Positions 22,716 to 64,000 of a stretch of 64,000 nucleotides of DNA are shown piece by piece. Every line of letters begins with the position of its first letter. Position 1 is the stretch's first letter. Source of the stretch: Hahellaceae bacterium (GTDB lineage Bacteria > Pseudomonadota > Gammaproteobacteria > Pseudomonadales > Oleiphilaceae); contig JACKOD010000001.1 in assembly GCA_024234505.1 (NCBI GenBank), forward strand, positions 783,166-847,165. Reading direction: 5' to 3'. The position numbers and the translations under genes are program-made. The notes under the pieces are model-generated. The model saw only the letters and a program-made list of their open reading frames with translations. It did no database searches and was not told the DNA's origin.

Positions 22716-22742
22716 TTGACAAAAAATCTGGTTTGATTATAA
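22716..22742 (+). promoter_or_regulatory. Putative sigma70 promoter of cspA (TTGACA, 16-bp spacer, TATAAT) followed by a long cspA-type 5' UTR
   Basis: Consensus -35 and -10 hexamers read directly about 145 nt upstream of the cspA start. Confidence 0.5.
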
Positions 22743-22889
22743 TTTACCCAGCTTGAAAGTAAGCCTATATTTATGAACACCATTTCGAAGTTCTAGTTTT
22801 AGTTCTCGTCCTGTTTCCATAAGTCATAGAAAACACTTCCAGCCGAATCGCCTTTTTTGGCACAAATTTATTGAATACAGGAAATGACT

Positions 22890-23096
22890 ATGTCAACTAC
22901 TACTGGCACCGTAAAATGGTTTAACGAAGCTAAAGGTTTTGGTTTCATTCAGCAAGAGTCTGGCCCAGACGTTTTTGCACACTTCAGTGCAATCTCTGGC
23001 ACAGGTTTCAAAACTCTGGTTGAAGGCCAGCGTGTTTCTTTCACTGTAACTAAGGGCCAGAAAGGTCCTCAGGCAGAGAACATCGTAGCTCTCTAA
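22890..23096 (+). CDS. cspA: Cold-shock protein, CspA family
   Basis: [20 protein letters not shown]... with RNP1/RNP2 motifs. 68 aa. Confidence 0.9.
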
Positions 23097-23148
23097 TTAT
23101 TAGAGGCAGTCGGCGCTGAAATTTATTTCAGCCCGAAGCGATAATAAA

Positions 23149-23181
23149 AAGGCAAGGTTTTATAACCTTGCCTTTTTTTAT
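23149..23181 (+). terminator. Rho-independent terminator downstream of cspA
   Basis: Stem AAGGCAAGGTT/AACCTTGCCTT followed by a T7 run. A smaller hairpin GCTGAAAT/ATTTCAGC lies just upstream, at about 23115-23135. Confidence 0.7.
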
Positions 23182-34346: not shown

Positions 34347-36230
34347 ATGCCACAGGTTGTCCGTTATGGTCTGGTGCTAATTTGCCTGTTGGGTGGATTT
34401 ACTCAAGTATGGGCTGAAACCCGTACCGCGCTGGTGATTGGAAACAGTGCCTACCGGGATGCGCCGTTGAAAAATCCGGCGAATGACGCAACCGATGTCG
34501 CTAAATTACTGCGTAGTCTGGAGTTTGACGTCGTTCTGAAAACCAATGCCACGCAAGAGGCCATGGAAGACGCCATTCGCGACTTCGGCAAAGCATTGGA
34601 GAAAAAAGGCGGAGTAGGGCTGTTTTTCTACGCGGGGCACGGCGTGCAGTCGCAGGGTAAAAACTACCTGATTCCGGTGGATGCCCAGCTCGAACGGGAA
34701 AAAGATCTGCGCTACCGCGCCGTTAATCTGGGTCAGCTGCTGGATGAAATGCGCTTTGCCAAAAACGGCCTGAACATTGCCATTCTCGATGCCTGCCGTA
34801 ATAACCCGCTGACACGCAGCTTCCGCTCCAGTGAACGCGGGTTGGCCCCCACGACCGATGCACCAAAGGGCTTGTTTTTGGCGTATTCTACCTCGCCCAA
34901 CGAAGTGGCCGCCGACGGCGAAGGCCGTAACAGTCCCTTTACCGAGCAGCTCAAGCTGGCACTAACCAAACCGGGGCTACCTCTGGAACTCACTTTTAAG
35001 GAAGTGGTGAAAGGGGTTAAAAAAGTCACACAGGAAAAGCAGGTGCCCTGGTTCAACTCCTCGGTAAGTGGCGATTTTTATTTTAAACCCGCTACACCGG
35101 CGCAGGCTCCAGTGGTCACGCCAACCATTGGGCCCTCAGCAGTACCCGGCAAGGCGGTGGACGCACTGGCCTGGACTTATGTTGAAAACAGCCAGGATGT
35201 CAGAGACTTTGCGGCTTTTCAGAAGCAGTTCCCTAACTCGCAGTATGCTTTTCTGGCTAAGATTCGCGAGCAGCAATTGCAGCGTACCTCCGCGCCAGCG
35301 GCCCCGGTGGCAGAAAAATATGCCCTAACCGTGCAAGCTACCCCGGCTAATGCAAAAATCCGCATTCTCAATATCGGCCCCGCTTATCGTGACGGTATTC
35401 AACTGACACCGGGAGATTATCACCTTGAAGTCAGCGCGAGAGGTTACGAAATGCAAAGGGAATGGGTCTCGCTGGGTAATATCGACCTTACGCACCGCAT
35501 AGTATTGAACAAAACGTCTACGTCTAGCCGGGCAACCCAACTAGGGCTGGAATTTGTGACGATTCCGGCAGGCAGTTTTATGATGGGCTCCGATGACGGT
35601 GATAACGACGAAAAGCCTGTACGAAAGGTTCAGGTGCCGTCGTTTAAGCTAATGAAATATGAAGTCACCCAAGGCCAGTGGCAGGCGGTGATGGGGTCTA
35701 ATCCGTCGTATTTCAGCAGTTGTGGCCAGAACTGCCCGGTGGAAAATGTTAGTTGGAATAACGTTCAGCAGTTTATCCATAAGCTCAACCAGCAAACCGG
35801 CCTGACCTTCCGTTTGCCGAGTGAGGCCGAATGGGAGTATGCAGCACGGGCGGGTACGACCACTGCCTTTTCCTTTGGCGATCAGATTACGACCGAGCAG
35901 GCCAATTTTAAAGGAAACTATACCTATAATGGCAGTCAAAAAGGTGTTTACCTAGGAAAAACCGTTCGTGTAGACAGCTTCCAGCCCAATAACTGGGGGC
36001 TTTATAATATGCACGGTAATGTCTCGGAGTTGACAGAAGATTGCTGGAATTATTTTAATAAAGACTATATCAATAGTCGTGCCAGAAGTGACGGTGATTG
36101 CTCGCTTCGTGTGCTGCGTGGCGGCTCCTGGGCCAACGAACCGCGCTACCTTCGTTCGGCCAGCCGTAACAGTTTCTTCATCGGCTTTCGCGACTATTTC
36201 GCCGGCTTTCGTCTCGTGCAGGGCCTCTAG
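34347..36230 (+). CDS. Exported caspase-family (peptidase C14) protein fused to PEGA domain and FGE-sulfatase (SUMF1-like) domain
   Basis: 627 aa. Signal peptide. Caspase catalytic dyad context YAGHG ... DACRNNP. PEGA-like segment (YALTVQATPANAKIRILNIGPAYRDGIQLTPGDYHLEV). FGE-sulfatase motifs (MGSDDGDNDEKP, EAEWEYAARAG, WGLYNMHGNVSELTEDCW, RVLRGGSW). Confidence 0.75.
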   Translation: MPQVVRYGLVLICLLGGFTQVWAETRTALVIGNSAYRDAPLKNPANDATDVAKLLRSLEFDVVLKTNATQEAMEDAIRDFGKALEKKGGVGLFFYAGHGVQSQGKNYLIPVDAQLEREKDLRYRAVNLGQLLDEMRFAKNGLNIAILDACRNNPLTRSFRSSERGLAPTTDAPKGLFLAYSTSPNEVAADGEGRNSPFTEQLKLALTKPGLPLELTFKEVVKGVKKVTQEKQVPWFNSSVSGDFYFKPATPAQAPVVTPTIGPSAVPGKAVDALAWTYVENSQDVRDFAAFQKQFPNSQYAFLAKIREQQLQRTSAPAAPVAEKYALTVQATPANAKIRILNIGPAYRDGIQLTPGDYHLEVSARGYEMQREWVSLGNIDLTHRIVLNKTSTSSRATQLGLEFVTIPAGSFMMGSDDGDNDEKPVRKVQVPSFKLMKYEVTQGQWQAVMGSNPSYFSSCGQNCPVENVSWNNVQQFIHKLNQQTGLTFRLPSEAEWEYAARAGTTTAFSFGDQITTEQANFKGNYTYNGSQKGVYLGKTVRVDSFQPNNWGLYNMHGNVSELTEDCWNYFNKDYINSRARSDGDCSLRVLRGGSWANEPRYLRSASRNSFFIGFRDYFAGFRLVQGL

Positions 36231-36294
36231 CGTCTTTTGGCTAGCGGTTACCCTTTGCGGAGCGTTAGCGACCCTGGAAATAGCTGTGCGAATT

Positions 36295-36345
36295 CCGCTC
36301 AGGCGGCTTCGCCCGCGCGGCGAGGACACCCCGCCTGCTGGGTGT
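36295..36345. repeat. About 50-bp repeat, copy A (GCGCGGCGAGGACACCCCGCCTGCTGGGTGT core); direct repeat of 38041-38092
   Basis: About 85% identity to copy B in the same orientation. Confidence 0.6.
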
Positions 36346-36464
36346 TTAGCCGGTCCGCCGATTTTGCTGCATCAGAAATAGCAGAATTGGATGCCAAAGG
36401 TGAAGTAGTTGGTTTGGGTCGCTTATTGTCGCGGGTAATGGATCTGAAACTAGCGCCTGCTGCC

Positions 36465-36492
36465 AGTACTTAGTACTTAGTACTTAGTACTA
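36465..36492. repeat. Tandem heptanucleotide repeat (AGTACTT)x3 plus one imperfect unit
   Basis: Read directly. Lies between the convergent 3' ends of the caspase gene and the 36529 gene. Confidence 0.8.
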
Positions 36493-36528
36493 AGTGCTAA
36501 TAAGTTATCCCCCACAATGTACCTCGCT

Positions 36529-37851
36529 CTACCTGTTGCCCTGTATCATCGATAATATCCATTGACCCGGCCGCACAATCAGCACATAAAAAATGCCCCA
36601 AAGGGTGGTAAGTACAACATAAGCAAAGCACCAACCACCTGCCACTGGCAAGAACACCAGCAGAAATAGAGCAAAATGCAGCGGCCTGAGCAGTAAATAC
36701 AGTGGCCACTGTTGCCAATGCTCGGGTCGATGCAGGCGCCATATGGCATTCCAGGCACGCCAGGTAGTGAGGGATGCCAGAAAACCCAAAAAGCCGGAAA
36801 TGATCAGATAAGTCTGCAGATAGGTCGGGATAAACGGCACGATGCGCTGGTCAAGTTCCTGGCCTCGCGCTTCATTGGGTGCGGCCAACACAATCGACTT
36901 GACTACAAGATGTTTGGCCGTGTGGGCGGCTACATCGCCAATGCTTAAGCCGGCGTCGCTTGCGGCAGTCAGATTCGGTACAGGACGTGTCTGAATCAAA
37001 CTCTGGCTCCCTTGGCCTTGGGCCAACTGATAAACAAAACGCTCATCACTTAAACCGGCAAATTGTTGTAGAAAGCCTGCCGTGTGATTTTCGGCGAGAC
37101 TGCCGGACAGCATGACTTCAGTGTGCTTTTGCGCTTCTGCCAGTACCTTGGTGGGGTTGGGAGCATCAAGCATGATCAGTTGAATGTCGTGTGTTTCGGC
37201 CTGGGCTTTTAGCAAAATGCGACTGGCATCGGGCAATTGGTTGCCTGCCACGACCAGCGTTTTCCGCGACATGGTTGACATGGCGGCAAGTGTTTCCTGT
37301 AGCGAATCAGATGCTGAGCCGATTTCACGAAAACTGATCTGGCCGGGCTTCCAGGGGCGCTGCAGGTGCCATAACCCTGATTGCAATTGCGTGATGTCAG
37401 CCACGGGCATGTCGATATTGGAAAAATTGAGTTCCCAATTTGGATTTACGCCGGTCGGGCGCCTCAGCGTAAATACTGCGTCATTTTTGGTTTTTAGCAA
37501 GATTGGCAGACTGTCCGGCAGGTTCTCGAAGTGTTTCAAGGAGCCGGGTAAATCCCGCGCATCAAGAAGCAGCGCGTGGGGAGCCGGTTGCAGGCGGGCA
37601 ACATCTTCAATCGTTTTAATTACATGTAGCTGACCATCAGCTCCTTCCAGAATCCATTCACCGCCTTCACGCGGGCGCAGGGAGGCAATGTGTTTGTCGT
37701 GTAGACCTTCCGGTAGTTTCAGTTTGTGAAGGGGGACGTCGACATCGACGTGCCTGGCTACTTTGCCCACTTTGGTCAACTCAGACAGAAAACCGCCGTG
37801 GGCGAAGGATGTTAATAGGCTGATGAGCCAAATTATCCAAACTTTTTTCAT
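36529..37851 (-). CDS. Hypothetical exported/membrane protein (N-terminal signal, C-terminal 3-4 TM helices)
   Basis: 440 aa, no recognisable family. Flanked by direct repeats and microsatellites. Confidence 0.5.
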   Translation of the reverse strand: MKKVWIIWLISLLTSFAHGGFLSELTKVGKVARHVDVDVPLHKLKLPEGLHDKHIASLRPREGGEWILEGADGQLHVIKTIEDVARLQPAPHALLLDARDLPGSLKHFENLPDSLPILLKTKNDAVFTLRRPTGVNPNWELNFSNIDMPVADITQLQSGLWHLQRPWKPGQISFREIGSASDSLQETLAAMSTMSRKTLVVAGNQLPDASRILLKAQAETHDIQLIMLDAPNPTKVLAEAQKHTEVMLSGSLAENHTAGFLQQFAGLSDERFVYQLAQGQGSQSLIQTRPVPNLTAASDAGLSIGDVAAHTAKHLVVKSIVLAAPNEARGQELDQRIVPFIPTYLQTYLIISGFLGFLASLTTWRAWNAIWRLHRPEHWQQWPLYLLLRPLHFALFLLVFLPVAGGWCFAYVVLTTLWGIFYVLIVRPGQWILSMIQGNR

Positions 37852-37872
37852 GCTTTTTTACTATCGTCAGGT

Positions 37873-37914
37873 CGCTAAACGCTAAACGCTAAACGCTAAA
37901 CGCTAAACGCTAAA
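37873..37914. repeat. Perfect tandem heptanucleotide repeat (CGCTAAA)x6, 22 bp upstream of the 36529-37851 gene start
   Basis: Read directly. Unit length is not a multiple of 3. Located in the promoter/5' UTR region. Confidence 0.9.
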
Positions 37915-38040
37915 TATCTCGCGACTAATGTTCCGTTTAAAAAGATAGAAACTCCATTCGGACTAAAGTTTGACTTACCTGTAAGAAGAATAACACCGAC
38001 AATTGCGATCGGTCTTGCTGGGTAATGGTCATGGATGACA

Positions 38041-38092
38041 CCCCTCAGATGGCTTCGGCCTGCGCGGCGAGGACGCCCCGCCTACTGTGTGT
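38041..38092. repeat. About 50-bp repeat, copy B (GCGCGGCGAGGACGCCCCGCCTACTGTGTGTG core)
   Basis: Direct repeat of 36295-36345. Confidence 0.6.
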
Positions 38093-38137
38093 GCAACATC
38101 TTCAACTGGGTATAGTCGAATTTTCTTAACGCGCGGA

Positions 38138-38587
38138 TTAATGGCGGTGTAGCCCCGTTAAATGCGTGGGTGCTTCGGATTCCACCTCGGCAATGTTCTG
38201 ACAAGATAGCCCCTCAATAATTCCGCATTGGTTCACTTCGCGATGGTCTCCGCAATTCTGACGCAGGGTGCGTAATTGCGTTGAGAGTGACTGCAAGGCA
38301 TGGATGCGGGCCTCCACATGCTGAATATGTTCGTCGATCAGGTCATTTATTTCGTGGCAATCATCCTTAGGATGATCGCGCATGGCCAGTAACAGGCGAA
38401 TTTCTTCCAGACTCATATCGAGCGTGCGACAGTTGCGAATGAACAGCAGGCGCTCCAGATCTGCCTCGCGGTAAACTCGGTAATTGCCGTCGCTGCGGGA
38501 AGGTGTGGGTACGAGGCCTTCTTTTTCCCAGTAGCGAATGGTTTCGACCGGGCAGTTAATTCGCTTGGCGAGTTCTCCGATTTTCAT
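38138..38587 (-). CDS. MerR-family heavy-metal-responsive transcriptional regulator (ZntR/CadR/PbrR-like)
   Basis: 150 aa from the MKIGELAKR start. HTH (GLVPTPSRSDGNYRVY). C-terminal Cys residues. The longer upstream track ORF is rejected. Confidence 0.8.
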   Translation of the reverse strand: MKIGELAKRINCPVETIRYWEKEGLVPTPSRSDGNYRVYREADLERLLFIRNCRTLDMSLEEIRLLLAMRDHPKDDCHEINDLIDEHIQHVEARIHALQSLSTQLRTLRQNCGDHREVNQCGIIEGLSCQNIAEVESEAPTHLTGLHRH

Positions 38588-38669
38588 TTTTTGTTTCCTC
38601 TGGCCTATTGACCCTATAGTAGCTTCAGGGTGTCTACTGGACAACAGATCAATAGCATATGGAGTATCA
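38588..38669. promoter_or_regulatory. Divergent MerR-type promoter/operator: TTGACC, 19-bp spacer containing dyad ACCCTATAG..CAGGGT, then -10
   Basis: The 19-bp -35/-10 spacing and the imperfect palindrome overlapping the spacer are typical of MerR-family operators. Sits between the divergent regulator and ATPase starts. Confidence 0.5.
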
Positions 38670-40955
38670 ATGATGTCAGGCGGATGTGGTGAAAGCACAA
38701 GGTCTAAAGATTGCGGTGAAAGCACAGAGGCTAAAGCAAGTACTCGTTGTTGTGGTGCAGGTGAGGGAAATTCGCACAGTGAAAGCGCTTTGCCGCCCTG
38801 TTGTGCGGCCTCGCCTGATGAAAAGAAGGAGGCCGATAGTATCATCGACTTACCTGGTTTTGTCCGTTCGCAGTTTCGCATCGCGCAAATGGATTGCCCC
38901 ACCGAAGAGCGTCTGATTCGGGATAAGCTTTCGTCGCTTGCAAGTGTCGGGGCGCTGGAGTTCAATCTGCTGCAACGGGTGCTGACGGTCTTTCATGTGC
39001 CGGATGGGGTCGACGATATTGTGGCCGCCATACAATCACTCGATTTCACGCCGGAGCCTCTGACCGACAACGCACGGCCTCTTACACCTGTGCCGCACCA
39101 GCCGCTTTGGCCGTTGGTTTTGGCTGGCTTGAGTGCTATCGGTGCCGAAATCGCGCACTTTTTTGCATTGACGAACGACTGGGTTGTTGCTGCGCTGGCG
39201 TTAGTTGCGATTGCCAGTTGCGGTCTGGGTACCTATAAAAAGGGCTGGATTGCCTTAAAAAACCGCAACCTCAACATCAACGCCCTGATGAGTATTGCCG
39301 TGACCGGCGCGCTGCTGATCGGTCAATGGCCCGAGGCGGCAATGGTGATGGTGTTGTTTGTCATAGCGGAGTTGATTGAGGCCAAATCCATTGACCGCGC
39401 CCGGCATGCCATTCGCAAATTACTGGATTTATCCCCTCAGCAGGCCACAGTTAAAAGTGCCGATGGTCATTGGCATACGCAGGATATTCGACATATCGCT
39501 ATGGGGTCACAAGTGCGCGTTCGGCCGGGCGAGCGTATTGCGCTGGATGGGGTGATTCAGGATGGACAATCTTCCGTGAATCAAGCCCCGATCACCGGCG
39601 AAAGTTTGCCCGTGGACAAAACAGTGGGTGATGCGGTGTATGCGGGCAGCCTGAATGAGGCCGGCTCTTTTATTTACACCACCACGGCAGCGGCGGATGG
39701 AACCCTGTTGGCGCGCATTATTCATGCCGTAGAAAGCGCCCAAGGGGCGAGGGCGCCGACGCAGCGTTTTGTGGATCAATTCGCCAAAGTTTACACGCCG
39801 GTGGTGTTTGCGCTGGCATTAGCGGTCGCTGTCGTGCCACCGTTATTTTCAAGTGGTATCTGGCTGGAATGGATTTATCGAGCACTGGTTTTGTTGGTGG
39901 TCGCCTGCCCCTGCGCCTTGGTGATTTCAACGCCGGTAACCATTGTGAGTGGGCTGGCCGCTGCGGCGCGACAGGGGATTCTGGTCAAGGGTGGAGCATT
40001 TCTGGAAGCCGGTCGGCATTTACGTTATCTGGCGTTAGATAAAACAGGCACCTTGACGGAGGGTAGACCGAAGCAGACTGACAGCATCATATTGTCCGAT
40101 GAACCGAATGACTTTGAGGTTGTCGCGGCGAGTCTGGCTAACCGTTCGGATCATCCGGTTTCTCATGCCATTGCCAGCGCGTTTAGCGGCCAGTTCGTCA
40201 AAGTAGAGCACTTCAGAGCCTTGAACGGTCGTGGGGTGGCCGGGTCGGTTGCCGGTCATAGTTATCATTTGGGTAATCATCGTCTGATCGAAGAGTTAGG
40301 CCTTTGCTCGCCGGAACTGGAAGTTCAGTTGAAAGGGCTGGAACAGCAGGGCAAAAGTGTGGTGCTCCTGACCAACGAACACAAGGTGCTGGCCTTGTTC
40401 GCCGTGGCCGATACGTTGCGGGCAACCAGTCGGGAAGCCATTCAGCAACTGCACGAACTGGGCGTTAAAACGCTTATGCTCAGTGGTGACAATCAATACA
40501 CTGCCCAGGCCATTGCAGACGGTGCAGGTATCGATGAAGTTAAGAGCGAGTTGTTGCCGGAGGACAAGCTGGCGGTTATTGCTGCACTCAGCGGTGAACA
40601 TGACAAGGTAGGCATGGTGGGAGATGGCATCAACGATGCCCCGGCACTGGCCAGAGCCGATATTGGTTTCGCGATGGGCATCAGTGGCACTGACACCGCA
40701 ATCGAAACCGCCGATGTGACTTTGATGGATGACGATTTGCGTAAAATTCCGCGCTTTATTGCGTTATCGAAGCAAACGGCCACCGTACTTCAACAAAACA
40801 TTGCACTGGCGATTGGCATTAAAGTGGTGTTTCTAGGGTTGGCTTTGGTCGGTCAGGCGACTCTGTGGATGGCGGTGTTTGCCGATATGGGCGCGAGTCT
40901 GATCGTGGTTGCAAATGGGTTGCGGATGTTGGAAGCACCGACTGAGCGCGGGTGA
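38670..40955 (+). CDS. Heavy-metal-translocating P1B-type ATPase (Zn/Cd/Pb type)
   Basis: N-terminal Cys-rich region (CG, CC, CC) plus HMA-like domain with DCPTEE motif. TM CPC motif (VACPCALV). DKTGTLT and GDGINDAP motifs. Start set at MMSGG with RBS GGAG. Confidence 0.85.
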   Translation: MMSGGCGESTRSKDCGESTEAKASTRCCGAGEGNSHSESALPPCCAASPDEKKEADSIIDLPGFVRSQFRIAQMDCPTEERLIRDKLSSLASVGALEFNLLQRVLTVFHVPDGVDDIVAAIQSLDFTPEPLTDNARPLTPVPHQPLWPLVLAGLSAIGAEIAHFFALTNDWVVAALALVAIASCGLGTYKKGWIALKNRNLNINALMSIAVTGALLIGQWPEAAMVMVLFVIAELIEAKSIDRARHAIRKLLDLSPQQATVKSADGHWHTQDIRHIAMGSQVRVRPGERIALDGVIQDGQSSVNQAPITGESLPVDKTVGDAVYAGSLNEAGSFIYTTTAAADGTLLARIIHAVESAQGARAPTQRFVDQFAKVYTPVVFALALAVAVVPPLFSSGIWLEWIYRALVLLVVACPCALVISTPVTIVSGLAAAARQGILVKGGAFLEAGRHLRYLALDKTGTLTEGRPKQTDSIILSDEPNDFEVVAASLANRSDHPVSHAIASAFSGQFVKVEHFRALNGRGVAGSVAGHSYHLGNHRLIEELGLCSPELEVQLKGLEQQGKSVVLLTNEHKVLALFAVADTLRATSREAIQQLHELGVKTLMLSGDNQYTAQAIADGAGIDEVKSELLPEDKLAVIAALSGEHDKVGMVGDGINDAPALARADIGFAMGISGTDTAIETADVTLMDDDLRKIPRFIALSKQTATVLQQNIALAIGIKVVFLGLALVGQATLWMAVFADMGASLIVVANGLRMLEAPTERG

Positions 40956-43146: not shown

Positions 43147-43758
43147 TTAAATAGGCAGCTTAATTTGATTAAGCATAGTGTTAAGCCATTGACCATAAGG
43201 TGACACCAGAAACCCGAGTGCGGCGCCATTCATGGCAACCGTTAGCCAGAATATGCGTCTAAAGGTGCGTTTTTGCGATTTGTGCCGAAGCCACTGTTGT
43301 GCAAAGAGTGCGCCGGGCCAGCCACCGGCTAATGCCAGATAATGTAGTGTGGCTTCCGGGACGCGCTGTTGAGATTTCTGGGCTGAAGACTTGTCCAGCG
43401 CATAGAAAATAAGCGTCAGTAGACTAACCGCGCCATAGAGAACCAGGATAATGAGGGCGAGTCGATTTAAATGCGTTAATACACCTAATCCCGAGAGAAA
43501 CAGCGCACTGACCAGAAACGCATTAAATGCAGGCCCGCGAGGCAAGATTTGCCGGCAACGGATATTAACTGCTTGTATTTGGTTTTTGGATTTTTTACCT
43601 GCCTGGAATTTAACGCGGGTGCCGACGGAGGGGCGACGTGATTTATTCTGCACATCAGAAATATGGAAAAAGTAGCGCTCATTGCTGCGCTTTGTTTGAA
43701 TAAAGCCAAATCCTTTTTCATCATTCCATTGAATGACTTTACCTTTGTATTCCACCAT
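43147..43758 (-). CDS. Cold-shock-domain protein fused to DUF1294 membrane domain
   Basis: N-terminal CSD (KGKVIQWNDEKGFGFI), then a basic linker and 3 TM helices. Start refined to MVEYKG. Confidence 0.65.
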   Translation of the reverse strand: MVEYKGKVIQWNDEKGFGFIQTKRSNERYFFHISDVQNKSRRPSVGTRVKFQAGKKSKNQIQAVNIRCRQILPRGPAFNAFLVSALFLSGLGVLTHLNRLALIILVLYGAVSLLTLIFYALDKSSAQKSQQRVPEATLHYLALAGGWPGALFAQQWLRHKSQKRTFRRIFWLTVAMNGAALGFLVSPYGQWLNTMLNQIKLPI

Positions 43759-46279: not shown

Positions 46280-49216
46280 TTAATCTGATGACTCAATTAG
46301 CGTCAGACCAGCAGGCAGCGCTTCGCCAAAGATCAGCTTGGTTTGCGCCGCATCATCGGGCTCGGTTTGGGTCAGCATGCGTAACCATAATGCCGGAGTC
46401 TTAACCGCCTGCAGGCGTTCGATTACCTGCTGGCGCAAACGCTCATCCAGATCGCGCTCGCGGTCGCCACTCAGCCGACACATTAAGATCGCCGCAAAGG
46501 CCAGGTTAGGGCTGCGTTGCCAGTTTTCCTGCAGTACCCGTGTCAGCCAGGTTTCGACTTGTTGCCGCGGGATGACCTGATGCAGGCTGGCATGGAACGG
46601 AATGCGCGAGGCAAGGCGGCCCAGCGCCCACCAACTGGTTTGGGTTTCACTGCTGTTTTGCAGGCGGGTTAACAGGCCGTCGCCAATGGCAATTTTGGCG
46701 CTGACCGGTAACAGCTCCAGCGAGCCGAGCAGGCGTACCATGTCTTCGTAAGAGTGTTGTTTGGCTTCGGCCTGGAGTTTACGGCTGCCGATGTTGGCGG
46801 GGTCGATGTAGACGGCCAGGTCGGTGTAGATGCGCGCTTGCTGATCGGCATTCAGGCCCCCGGCAGCGCGGCGCCAGAATGTCCACCAGTCAATCCAGCT
46901 CTGGGTTTCCTGAGGAAAGGCCAGACCCTGTTCATACAGCGGCCAGATTTTTTGCAGACGCCAGGCGTCCGCCGGGTGGCCGAAGCCGGGGCGCAGTCCG
47001 AAACCGGCCAGATTCAACCACAGGCGTTCGTGCTGCTGTGAGCGGCGGCGTTGGGCCTGACCTTGCAGTAGCTGGTCGAACAGGGTACGCAACAGATTGG
47101 CATCCCAGGTATCTCGTTTGCCCAGGCATTTCTCCAGATCGTTACGCAGGGTTTTAATCAGCTTCGGATCGCTTTTTTGTTTCTTCTCACCATACAGTGC
47201 GTCTAACAGCGTTTGTGCTTCCGGCCAGCGTGGCGGTAGCGCGAGGCGGTTGGTAGTGCTGTGTGTTGCGCCATGTGTTGATCCGTCATCTGTGGCGCAC
47301 TCTGCCGTACCTGTCTGGCGTACCTGAAATTCCACCTGCCAGCGCTGCGCGGGTTGATCGGCGGCGATACTCACACACTGTAATTGCAACGTGCCAACTT
47401 CGGTCAGGCTGGCCATCAGTTGTACCGGTACCTGTCTGGCGCTACCTTTGTTTGTGGTATTACCTGACTGCGGCGGCAGGGCCGCAATCAGCGGAGGCAA
47501 GGCAATAAAATCGTCGGCTAGTGTGGCCAGTTCGCCGGGCAGATAGGACTGATCGCGGGTGGTCGAGGTCAGATTGAAGATGACCGGTTGATCCAGCGTT
47601 AACAGAAATTGGCGATCCGTTAAGGCCACTTCGCACAGTTCCTCGGTGCCTTTGGGTAACAGGCATACCGTTTGGGCGCGCTCACCCTCGGCACCCGGCA
47701 ACACCAGAAAAAACGAACGTGCGGAACCACCGCCGATCTTGAGTTGCTGGCCACGTCGGGCCATGGCATAGGCCACGGCACCGTAGGCCACGGCCAGATC
47801 AGGATGCGGGTTGTCGAGACAAGTAACCGGCTGGCCTTGACGCCATTGTGCAAGTAAATCCTGCAGGCGCTGGTTTAACTGGCCGCTATTAAACACGCCG
47901 CCATTGAGTAGCAAGGCATCGGGAATGGCAGGTGCCGAATCGGCATCGGCGTTTAATGCATTATGATCATCCAACGCTTCGCGACAAGCACGCTCATGGT
48001 TACCAATAAAGGCGGCCAGATGCTTGCTGATGGCGGGGTCGCTGGCATAGGGCAGACCGAACTCCACCACTGCGCTGCGGCGTTTGTTTGGGCGCTGAGC
48101 AAAATCGCTGAGCGGGAAAAAACCGTCCAGCGCGATAGCTTGAACTTCGTCGCGGGTCAGTTCGCAGCTTTTCGCACCACCGATCAGTCGCGCACCGCTG
48201 CCCAACAGTGTGACCGTGGCCTGGGTGGGGGCGGTTTCCTGCAGCAAGCGCTCTTTGGCTTGGCGTGTCTGCTGGATCAACTGCGAGAGCTGTCCGGCAC
48301 TCAGTGGCTTGCCGGGGGCCAGACGCTGTTCTGCGAGATGCGCCAGCGCCAGGTCGATATTGTCTCCACCCAGCATCAGGTGATCACCGACACCGATGCG
48401 GGTCAGGTTGAGTTGCTGCTGTTCATCCAGCGCAATCTTGACCAGACTCAGGTCGGTGGTGCCACCGCCGACATCGCAAACCAGCAACAGGCGCAGATCG
48501 TTTAACAGTTGCGCGGCATTGGCTTGGTGCCGCGCGAACCAGTCATAACAGACCGCGAGCGGCTCTTCCAGTAACAAAATATGGGGCAAACCGGCGAGCG
48601 TGGCTGCCTCAACCGTCAGCACACGAGCGCCTTCGTCAAACGAAGCCGGTACCGTGACCACGATTTCCTGATCTTCCAGCAGGGCATCGGGGTGTTCGTG
48701 GTTCCAGGCCTGGCGCACATAGTGGAGATAACTGGCACTGGCAATCAGTGGCGATACCTTATCGGCCTCGGTGGCGGCAGACCAGGGCAGAATCGCGGCA
48801 CGGCGATCCACCTGTGGATGCGACAGCCAGCTTTTGGCACTGACCACCAGACGACCGTCGGCTTTGGCACCCAGCGAACGCGCCCAGGCACCAATAACCC
48901 GGCGAGGCAGGTCTTCGAAGTGCGCCGGACTGGCATCCTGCGACCAGGGCAGCACCAGATCGGCTTCAGCCAGTTCGCCGGGGGCCGGATGGTAGCGAAA
49001 CGACGGCAACAACGGCAGCTTGGCAACTTCACCCGGTGCTACCAGCTGCTCGATTTCGAAGATCTGGCGCTGCGCCGGTTGCATCTGGTCGCTTAGCGGG
49101 GCGTAGGACACCACGGTATGGGTGGTGCCCAGGTCAATCCCCACCAGATAGCGCGCCGCTGGGCGGCTTTGATCAACCTTGGAAGAGGGCGGGTTGCTGT
49201 CTGTTGTCTGTGTCAT
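46280..49216 (-). CDS. Hsp70-family (DnaK-like actin-fold ATPase) protein, long form with ~350-aa C-terminal extension
   Basis: 978 aa. IDLGTTHTVVSY phosphate-1 motif. DVGGGTTDLSLV phosphate-2 motif. Confidence 0.8.
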   Translation of the reverse strand: MTQTTDSNPPSSKVDQSRPAARYLVGIDLGTTHTVVSYAPLSDQMQPAQRQIFEIEQLVAPGEVAKLPLLPSFRYHPAPGELAEADLVLPWSQDASPAHFEDLPRRVIGAWARSLGAKADGRLVVSAKSWLSHPQVDRRAAILPWSAATEADKVSPLIASASYLHYVRQAWNHEHPDALLEDQEIVVTVPASFDEGARVLTVEAATLAGLPHILLLEEPLAVCYDWFARHQANAAQLLNDLRLLLVCDVGGGTTDLSLVKIALDEQQQLNLTRIGVGDHLMLGGDNIDLALAHLAEQRLAPGKPLSAGQLSQLIQQTRQAKERLLQETAPTQATVTLLGSGARLIGGAKSCELTRDEVQAIALDGFFPLSDFAQRPNKRRSAVVEFGLPYASDPAISKHLAAFIGNHERACREALDDHNALNADADSAPAIPDALLLNGGVFNSGQLNQRLQDLLAQWRQGQPVTCLDNPHPDLAVAYGAVAYAMARRGQQLKIGGGSARSFFLVLPGAEGERAQTVCLLPKGTEELCEVALTDRQFLLTLDQPVIFNLTSTTRDQSYLPGELATLADDFIALPPLIAALPPQSGNTTNKGSARQVPVQLMASLTEVGTLQLQCVSIAADQPAQRWQVEFQVRQTGTAECATDDGSTHGATHSTTNRLALPPRWPEAQTLLDALYGEKKQKSDPKLIKTLRNDLEKCLGKRDTWDANLLRTLFDQLLQGQAQRRRSQQHERLWLNLAGFGLRPGFGHPADAWRLQKIWPLYEQGLAFPQETQSWIDWWTFWRRAAGGLNADQQARIYTDLAVYIDPANIGSRKLQAEAKQHSYEDMVRLLGSLELLPVSAKIAIGDGLLTRLQNSSETQTSWWALGRLASRIPFHASLHQVIPRQQVETWLTRVLQENWQRSPNLAFAAILMCRLSGDRERDLDERLRQQVIERLQAVKTPALWLRMLTQTEPDDAAQTKLIFGEALPAGLTLIESSD

Positions 49217-49249
49217 GTGCCTGTCTGTATTGTATTTACAATTGGGGGA

Positions 49250-62626: not shown

Positions 62627-64000
62627 CGGCGTTTTTCAAGCTAGTTGTCACCATCAGCCGATTTAAGCGGCCTGATTTTCTACCTGTCTAATCGGCTCTC
62701 TTTCCGGGTTCAGCGTTGTTGGTCCCACCGGTGTGCAGTTTCGTACATCACGCGTTCCCCATCGATCTGGATTGGCTGCCTTCGCGGCTTCAATCCGATC
62801 TTTGCGCTGCGTCAGTATGTTTTTATCCTGTCCTGTATGGCGCTGGTGTGGCGTCACGAACCGCAATCGACTGTGTTTATGCTCGTAGTTATACCAGCGC
62901 GTAAACTTCAGGACCCAGGCTCTTGCTTCATCAAGGCTTTTAAAGCCAGCTGATGGCCAATCCGGCCGGTATTTGCAGGTTCGGAACAATGACTCGGCAA
63001 ACGGATTATCGTTGCTCACCCTAGGCCTGCTGTACGAGGTGGTCACCCCAAGTTCATACGCTTTCATGCGCATGGTTTGAGATTTCATCGGGGCGCCGTT
63101 ATCCGAGTGCAGCACCACACCACTGTGCAAACATTTTTCCCGTATCAGTGTTTGTTCCAATAGCTTCGCCGCGTAGGCTCCAGATTCTTGTTCATTCACT
63201 TCGTGACCGACGATTTTTCGGCTGAATATATCTTCCAGCATGTACAGGTAGTAAAACTGCCCACGCACCGTGCTGGGTAAGTAGGTGATATCCCAGCAAA
63301 ACACCTGACCAGGCCCTGTCGCCTGAAAAGTCTTTGGCAGGGCTAACCCTTTCGGCGCCATGCTTCGTCCACGATGATGCAACTGACCTCGGGCTTTTAA
63401 TACCCGGTAAAACGTCGATTCAGAGCCGTAATATTCACCATTATCCAACAGTGTCGGCACAATTTGTGATGGCGGTAAACTCGCAAATTTTGGCAGGTTA
63501 CACACCGCAATGATTTGTGCCTGTTCCGCTTCGGTCAATTTATTTGTAGGCGCAGGACGAACCGTATCCGGTCGTTTATCTGCACTGATCTGACCATCAC
63601 GATACCAGCGCCGATAGGTACGTAACGTGATCCCCACTTCTTCGCACGACTTATGCAGTCTGGCTCCCGACTGATTCGCTTCCTGTATCCACGACACGTA
63701 TTGTGTGCGCTGTGGGACTGAGGTTAATCGTCCTCGCTGTCGTTCTCCCAAAGCGCATTTAACTTTTTTCGAAGCACCAGTAAGGCGGCTGTTTCAGCTA
63801 AGGCTTTTTCTTTTTCTCGCAGCTCGCGTTTTAACTGTTTGATTTCTCTATGATCGGCCTGACGCTGCCGTTTTGCTTCCAGCTCTTGTTCACGTGAACT
63901 CATAAAACCTCTGAGCGAGTCGGCTTTCCAGGCTTTCACTTGTTCCACGTAAAGGCCTTTTTCTCGACAGTATTCGCTGAGTTCGGCTTCATTCAAACTG
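62627..64000 (-). mobile_element. IS3-family insertion sequence (partial; runs off window). OrfB (DDE integrase) at 62663-63751, OrfA 3' part at 63724-63996. Putative -1 frameshift heptamer A_AAA_AAG at about 63763-63769.
   Basis: OrfB carries rve/DDE integrase-core motifs. OrfA shows HTH/leucine-zipper-like sequence (...LKRELREKEKALAETAALLVL). Overlapping frames with a slippery A6G site. Confidence 0.8.

Follow-up and report, generated by a model that had tools for sequence, protein, structure and literature searches.

A strain-variable gene between diverged direct repeats and heptanucleotide tracts in an uncultured Hahellaceae bacterium

The DNA analysed here (the window, 64,000 nt) is from a metagenome-assembled genome of an uncultured Hahellaceae bacterium. 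Of ten window proteins compared by exact sequence, seven are identical to proteins in the range MCP5160741-753 of that genome, encoded on a contig of 852,402 bp, and three share 90% clusters with its proteins but have other lengths. Between a gene for a caspase (Peptidase_C14) domain joined to an FGE-sulfatase domain and a merR regulator gene, it carries a 440-aa open reading frame (ORF) that is absent from an otherwise nearly identical strain. The ORF is bracketed by two copies of a GC-rich element of about 52 nt, which we call copy A (on its 3' side) and copy B (on its upstream side), and by two different heptanucleotide tracts, (TTTAGCG)6 before its start codon and (AAGTACT)n after its stop codon. 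We read this locus, with a probability of about one half, as an accessory gene module that varies between strains and occupies a recombination-active gap, with the caspase-family gene on one side and merR on the other; the upstream heptamer tract would serve in it as an expression tuner. We would class the locus among repeat-associated accessory loci of a contingency-like kind, placed in a recombination-active islet; it stops short of a demonstrated mobile cassette. All of the features that a first-pass annotation of the letters had described at this locus are real and non-random; the direct repeats of about 85% identity, the perfect (CGCTAAA)6 tract (the same tract read on the other strand), and the (AGTACTT)3-4 tract on the 3' side were all recovered, and the one correction to the layout is that the upstream tract is separated from the ATG by 21 nt (37852-37872) rather than by 22.

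The variability of the gene was seen in contigs from eight metagenomic runs that were retrieved by a lookup with neighbouring proteins; these comparison contigs, given here by L numbers, are short-read k=31 Logan assemblies. Contig L006 from run SRR12358675 matches the window from position 43284 down to 38054, inside repeat copy B, with a single mismatch in 5231 nt (99.98%). Past 38054 it holds one element and then runs directly into a caspase gene with an Lcl_C C-terminus (PF07603, E 3e-31), and the 440-aa gene is absent. A second contig of the same run, L019, follows the window at 100% identity as far as 35140 and shares an overlap of exactly 30 nt (k-1) with L006. In the strain that these two contigs represent, 2913 nt of the window (35141-38053) are thus replaced by 1007 nt consisting of a linker, an Lcl_C domain, and one repeat. 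The polymorphism therefore has its right junction at 38054, inside repeat B, and its left junction at about 35140, inside the caspase-family gene. In five other runs, contigs end at 38054-38058, and one ends at 35140. Because contigs from SRR14234112, which represents the window's own strain, run through both 35140 and 38054, these breaks are attributed to co-occurring alleles and not to a genome-wide repeat.

A third haplotype (L001 and L007-L009) carries the gene in a form that is 2.5% diverged. In L007-L009 there are 13 differences from the window within 38086-38796 (710 nt, from repeat B through merR into the start of the ATPase gene) and then none for 3 kb. With the 13 differences packed so closely, a diverged haplotype block extends from the accessory gene across merR, and a gene that is 2.5% diverged next to 3 kb of identical sequence indicates that the gene-bearing alleles are old relative to their flanks.

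Since the genome was assembled from a metagenome and the samples contain several co-occurring alleles, an assembly artefact, either a chimeric metagenome-assembled genome or a mis-joined repeat, has to be considered, but we find it barely credible. In independent k=31 assemblies of SRR14234112, the two repeat junctions and the complete gene reappear with 100% identity to the window (L002 contains repeat A and the AGTACTT tract, and L004 contains repeat B), and the second allele, L001, also has the 440-aa gene together with its leader.

Copies A and B are identical at 44 of 52 positions with one gap, and their starts lie 1747 nt apart. When they were aligned with the single element of L006, the latter proved to be copy B over its merR-proximal 39/39 nt (ACACACAGTAGGCGGGGCGTCCTCGCCGCGCAGGCCGAA) and, beyond these 39 nt, to continue with the caspase-side flank of copy A (CTGAGC.GAATTCGCA....TATTTCCA), which is absent from copy B. 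That flank lies at 36275-36294 in the window. Put the other way round, copy B is made up of 39 nt of the gene-lacking strain's element and, after them, 13 nt from the insert, and copy A consists of a diverged version of the element followed by the caspase-side flank shared with the gene-lacking strain. The gene-lacking strain thus has one copy of an intergenic GC-rich element of ~52-75 nt where the window has two, and its single copy is a hybrid, which is the structure that a reciprocal crossover between two diverged copies would leave.

On this basis we propose that a 1747-bp unit, comprising one element copy, a promoter, the heptamer tract, the gene, and the 3' tract, may have been joined in, or lost, when two diverged copies of the element recombined in one reciprocal crossover. 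Such an event would resemble Campbell-type integration, or an exchange in which the short element acts as portable homology. After it, copy B would be made of the chromosomal left part and the insert's right part, and copy A of the insert's left part and the chromosomal right part. The 'minimal mobile elements' of Neisseria, islets exchanged between conserved flanks, are similar in that accessory DNA is exchanged in a clonal background through crossovers in the conserved flanks.

The first-pass annotation had described the locus as a single-gene cassette, and this description stands in part. Presence and absence in near-clonal strains, one junction inside repeat B, and the hybrid single copy in the gene-lacking strain all agree with it; the other junction, however, lies in the caspase gene, making the variable block 2.9 kb long, and the searches found neither attC-type core sites nor a recombinase in the window nor further copies of the element in public collections. 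A true site-specific cassette would be one in which the ~52-bp element is att-like, the recombinase is encoded elsewhere, and the unit is excised as a 1747-bp circle, by analogy with integrons but at a different site. Such a cassette would account for the presence of one gene and one site copy per unit, for the sharp switch point after GGCCGAA in the hybrid copy, and for the divergence of the copies (85%) despite clonal flanks, which is expected if the insert brought its own site. We nevertheless regard it as very unlikely. No pair of R'' (RYYYAAC) and R' (GTTRRRY) core sites is present on either strand of either intergenic region, so an integron attC was rejected, and no ORF of at least 180 aa across the 64-kb window contains a tyrosine or serine recombinase domain, intI included. 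There is no cassette array, only the two element copies, and no second cassette was found in the collections searched. Integron cassettes likewise consist of a single gene between similar short sites, which some strains have and others lack. Unlike them, the 440-aa gene comes with an upstream region of its own and points away from copy A, opposite to the direction that a cassette would be expected to have.

The only mobility genes in the window are a DDE (DUF772/DDE_Tnp_1) transposase gene at 54819-56186 and an rve transposase gene at 62663-63751, 17-25 kb from the locus. An insertion sequence or transposon was also rejected as the identity of the unit: its sole ORF encodes a putative envelope protein, there are no terminal inverted repeats, and the duplication is 52 nt long and only 85% identical. 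A bolder version, in which the element would be the site of an undescribed, non-integron cassette system whose single genes, each with a promoter and mutable heptamer tracts, are inserted and excised as small circles by a recombinase encoded elsewhere in the genome, at a hotspot that also shuffles lectin-like C-terminal domains of the caspase family, strikes us as a long shot.

The element is the most GC-rich intergenic stretch of the window, with 83% GC in DNA of 48% GC overall, and in the gene-lacking allele it sits between the convergent ends of merR and the caspase gene, the classic position of a repetitive extragenic palindromic (REP) sequence. These two properties would suit an explanation without mobility, in which the element would be intergenic DNA of a REP-like or 3'-end kind with few copies, the other strain would have lost an ancestral 440-aa gene when a foreign caspase C-terminus was imported by homologous recombination, and the heptamers would be neutral products of slippage. 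The GC content and GC3 (GC at third codon positions) of the gene equal those of its neighbours, as an ancestral gene would have it; a left junction inside a gene is what homologous replacement is expected to produce; and, among long simple sequence repeats, heptamers are reported to be the most frequent class in many genomes (Mrazek 2007, as cited in PMC4679880).

We consider this explanation unlikely. The first-pass annotation had raised the prospect that the element is a ubiquitous REP, and the searches do not bear this out. The 22-nt core of the element occurs exactly twice in the window and in none of 100 shuffles, blastn with a word size of 7 found no third copy of the element in the 64 kb, and both copies are at the 440-aa gene, far from the high copy number of REP sequences or of REP doublets forming hairpins (REPINs). 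A search for the core in 185,579 species genomes (one per species), JGI metagenome contigs, and IMG/VR, collections that exclude the window's own genome, returned four chance matches only, all with unrelated flanks in DNA of 67-75% GC. Stems rich in GC are predicted for the element, but the folds differ between the two copies (z from -1.8 to +0.45), and none is conserved or significantly stable. Thus, although it is a short GC-rich element between convergent gene ends like REP sequences and bacterial interspersed mosaic elements (BIMEs), it differs from these in its very low copy number, in having no convincing palindrome, and in that one copy has been duplicated around a gene. The hybrid single copy, which joins the left part of B to the flank of A, fits a crossover inside the element, and neutral slippage would have to accommodate the fact that the window's only two heptamer tracts flank this one gene. 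A role of the element as a terminator was rejected as well: it has no U-tract, and the repeats are not flagged by a terminator scan.

Returning to the proposed module, its second component is the heptamer tract upstream of the start codon. In the 64-kb window, the two heptamer tracts are the sole perfect tandem repeats of 4-9-nt units with at least three copies, and both flank the 440-aa ORF. Neither tract is coding, because each contains stop codons in every frame of both strands; (TTTAGCG)6 can be seen by direct reading to carry TAG or TAA stops in each frame. The first-pass annotation had called the upstream tract a classic slipped-strand phase-variation switch. Since the 42-bp tract can neither act as a spacer between -35 and -10 boxes nor shift a reading frame, "classic" is an overstatement, though phase variation at the 440-aa gene is plausible as far as the sequence goes. 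The best candidate from a lenient promoter scan, TTTAAA-17-GATATT, has a -10 box that abuts the tract, so that, if this candidate is correct, most of the tract would be transcribed as 5' leader, and we consider that (TTTAGCG)6 is probably located there. The leader is A-rich, and no Shine-Dalgarno sequence precedes the ATG. When folded in silico, the RNA of the tract pairs with itself, with about -3.4 kcal/mol for each added unit, and the AUG region remains unpaired. Most likely, the tract would act as a tuner prone to slippage, with expression changing by degrees as units are added or removed, whether through the length of the leader, the 5' hairpin, or the spacing to upstream promoter DNA.

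The count of six units is taken from the window assembly alone, as the SRR14234112 contigs stop at or near the tract. Contigs L001 and L002, which are from different samples and strains, begin at exactly the same base (37883), 11 nt into the tract, and L004 ends at 37938, 24 nt before it; for a single fixed allele at k=31, contigs would be expected to reach 30 nt into the tract, and the observed ends disagree with this. Such end points hint at heterogeneity nearby and prove nothing. Possible causes are a locally heterogeneous sequence, as in the A6 run that precedes the ATG, and clean-up of the assembler's graph.

The 3' tract has three perfect units (36465-36485), or 4.4-5.1 units if imperfect ones are counted to 36495 or 36500. 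Each AAGTACT unit holds the palindrome AGTACT, which makes the tract self-complementary, and a hairpin of its RNA is predicted at -14.7 kcal/mol (z -1.3). The tract may be either a 3'-end structure or neutral. Four consecutive AGTACT palindromes make up 36465-36492, and AGTACT is found only six more times in the 64 kb, where base composition would predict about 17 sites. From the contrast between a pure 5' tract and a decayed 3' tract, we infer only that the locus would be compatible with ongoing slippage.

Instead of a mutable switch, the upstream array might be a fixed set of binding sites for a transcriptional or post-transcriptional regulator, giving physiological rather than stochastic regulation. 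Arrays of the heptamer TAACTGA upstream of start codons are known from Beggiatoaceae, cyanobacteria, and Bacteroidetes; those of Beggiatoaceae and cyanobacteria are proposed to be regulator-binding sites, and repeat sets are found at up to 169 loci in a single genome (PMC4679880). The shared features are a short heptamer array (2-6 copies) directly before the start codon of a gammaproteobacterial gene that lacks a canonical ribosome-binding site; the leader of the present gene is A-rich. It is also perfect, and the 11 nt of it that are visible in L001, the 2.5%-diverged allele, are identical to those of the window. We think this quite unlikely, however. The unit is TTTAGCG and not TAACTGA, no candidate binding protein was found, and there is no regulon-like distribution, because TTTAGCG/CGCTAAA occurs outside the tract only as eight scattered single copies on both strands of the 64 kb, with no other tandem occurrence.

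The interpretation as a tuner draws on two better-studied cases. In Haemophilus influenzae, 7-bp repeats lie upstream of hmw1A and hmw2A, with 13-38 units reported for hmw (PMC2651432, citing Dawid et al. 1999), and an (AACAACC)1-7 tract lies 13 bp upstream of a TonB-dependent receptor gene (PMC2651432). According to the account given in PMC2651432, the Haemophilus heptamers are documented to differ in length from strain to strain and to influence expression. The hmw genes and the 440-aa gene have in common tandem 7-nt units in non-coding DNA just upstream of a gene for a (here predicted) envelope protein, and, because frameshifting is impossible at either, any effect of the heptamers must be graded and act in transcription or in the leader. 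The present locus differs in its unit sequence, in having 6 copies instead of 13-38, and in its host, an uncultured environmental or host-associated gammaproteobacterium. The other case is uspA2 of Moraxella catarrhalis, where the function of an (AGAT)n repeat in the 5' untranslated region was proven experimentally (as reported via PMC4679880). There too the repeat lies between a probable promoter and the start codon, and copy number could likewise set the expression level here. The unit of uspA2 is 4 nt and not 7 nt, and the promoter position at the 440-aa gene is a weak consensus match only.

The 440-aa ORF itself encodes a predicted signal-peptide/transmembrane protein, with a hydrophobic N-terminal segment at residues 4-22 and a C-terminal hydrophobic block of 46 residues at 382-427. 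The claim that it belongs to no known family holds for Pfam, NCBIfam, PADLOC, and PHROGs, none of which gave a match, but the protein is not an orphan. While a word-indexed search found three relatives only, an exhaustive profile search returned 449 cluster representatives, 228 of them at E<=1e-30 and nearly all full-length (about 450-540 aa); the protein is thus a member of an undescribed, widespread family of about 450 clusters. An AlphaFold model built with a 40-sequence alignment is confident (predicted local distance difference test, pLDDT, 88; predicted template modelling score, pTM, 0.80) and shows a hydrophobic helix at the N-terminus, a domain of mixed alpha/beta structure, and, towards the C-terminus, long helices that fall on the 46-residue hydrophobic block. 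The predicted fold had no match in the PDB. By these features the product is predicted to be an envelope protein.

Compared with the 98%-identical allele in L001, from another sample, the window gene has 21 synonymous and 10 non-synonymous differences, with a ratio of non-synonymous to synonymous rates (dN/dS) of 0.146. Such a ratio points to purifying selection and hence to a functional gene, which by its base composition also appears native. Homologues on two distant contigs (L015 6001-7545 and L016 2096-3640) lie between Sua5/YrdC and a short-chain dehydrogenase. We would like to note that positions 1-117 of the ENA contig L003, which carries the 32%-identical homologue P0002, consist of a poly-C/poly-T run and an Illumina Nextera adapter; the region upstream of that homologue is artefactual for this reason.

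Several results weigh against the reading of the locus as a module exchanged through the element and tuned by its heptamers. The left edge of the polymorphic block lies inside the caspase gene and not in repeat A, and insertion cannot be told from deletion because the gene-lacking strain does not offer a clean empty site. Copies A and B share at most 13 consecutive identical bases, their longest identical run, and are a poor substrate for RecA for that reason. The donor copy of the element is a conjecture, given that no second locus with the element was found in public collections. The homologue loci in L003, L015, L016, and L020 have neither flanking repeats nor heptamer tracts. With regard to the tuner, a strict promoter scan upstream of the 440-aa gene found no promoter, and none of the contigs retrieved spans the tract, so no variation in copy number was seen; a lookup for spanning contigs by way of a small upstream ORF gave no further contig.

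The coordinates of the features are collected in Table 1.

Table 1. Features at and around the 440-aa gene (window coordinates).
Feature	Position	Strand	Remarks
440-aa gene	36529-37851	minus	ORF with ATG start; predicted signal peptide or signal anchor and C-terminal membrane anchor
(CGCTAAA)6, (TTTAGCG)6 in gene orientation	37873-37914	minus	-63..-22 relative to ATG; 42 bp; 100% perfect
(AGTACTT), (AAGTACT)n tract	36465-36500	minus	29 nt past the stop codon of the 440-aa gene
Repeat copy A	36295-36345	no strand	in the gap where the 440-aa and caspase-FGE genes face each other with their 3' ends
Repeat copy B	38041-38092	no strand	between the merR stop codon and the region upstream of the 440-aa gene
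Strain-variable block, 2913 nt	35141-38053	no strand	caspase linker and FGE-sulfatase domain, repeat A, both heptamer tracts and the 440-aa gene between them, and the 13 nt at the right of repeat B
Sigma-70-like promoter candidate, TTTAAA-17 nt-GATATT	37913-37941	minus	predicted; 8/12 consensus matches in a lenient scan
Terminator-like hairpin with T-rich tail	37995-38013	minus	between repeat B and the promoter candidate
Peptidase_C14 (caspase) and FGE-sulfatase gene	34347-36230	plus	3' half inside the variable block
Cd/Pb-type MerR regulator gene	38138-38587	minus	conserved right flank; divergent from the P-type ATPase gene at 38670-40955

The caspase gene next to the 440-aa gene is itself variable. 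Between the near-clonal strains its C-terminus is either FGE-sulfatase (window 35141-36230) or Lcl_C (L006 5536-6238), with the switch at about residue 265, and database relatives of the caspase domain have Lcl_C, CBM_4_9, FGE-sulfatase, or other C-termini. The pattern is suggestive of domain shuffling in which a ligand-binding module is exchanged. A search with the caspase N-terminal domain for more alleles found only proteins of <=64% identity, and neither the exact caspase-FGE product nor the exact CspA product is on record.

In other respects the window is ordinary chromosome, with polysaccharide synthesis genes, MsrPQ, and a DnaK-like trio among others. It contains no tRNA genes, and at the locus Rfam gave no match at either permissive or gathering thresholds. 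A plasmid origin was rejected, as there was no protein or DNA match in PLSDB. The hairpin between repeat B and the promoter candidate may be the transcription terminator of merR; terminator-like sites of this kind are no more numerous than expected from shuffles. Two 25-nt direct repeats at 38685-38736, 84% identical and 27 nt apart, fall just within the 5' end of the P-type ATPase gene, where they may specify an N-terminal metal-binding motif in duplicate. The ATPase gene also contains, at 38762-38779, an 18-nt inverted match to the flank of repeat A, which was judged to be due to chance. Farther away, 46280-51873 holds a set of three genes encoding two Hsp70-like proteins, one of them with DUF3731, and a DUF2760 protein; the two Hsp70-like proteins weakly match the PADLOC candidate defence model PDC-M61B. 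At 22726-23178 there is an Rfam match to the cspA thermoregulator (83.5 bits, above the gathering score), upstream of and overlapping the ORF of a 70-aa cold-shock protein (22884-23096).

If the upstream tract turns out to be invariant and the element to be a common intergenic repeat, the locus would be an ordinary one. The comparison in a clonal background documents a very recent change in gene content at a defined short sequence. If the tract does vary, the locus would be of the contingency type, in an uncultured Hahellaceae lineage outside the well-studied pathogens, and it would offer the first biological handle on a family of about 450 clusters, whose member here would be an envelope protein under fluctuating selection.

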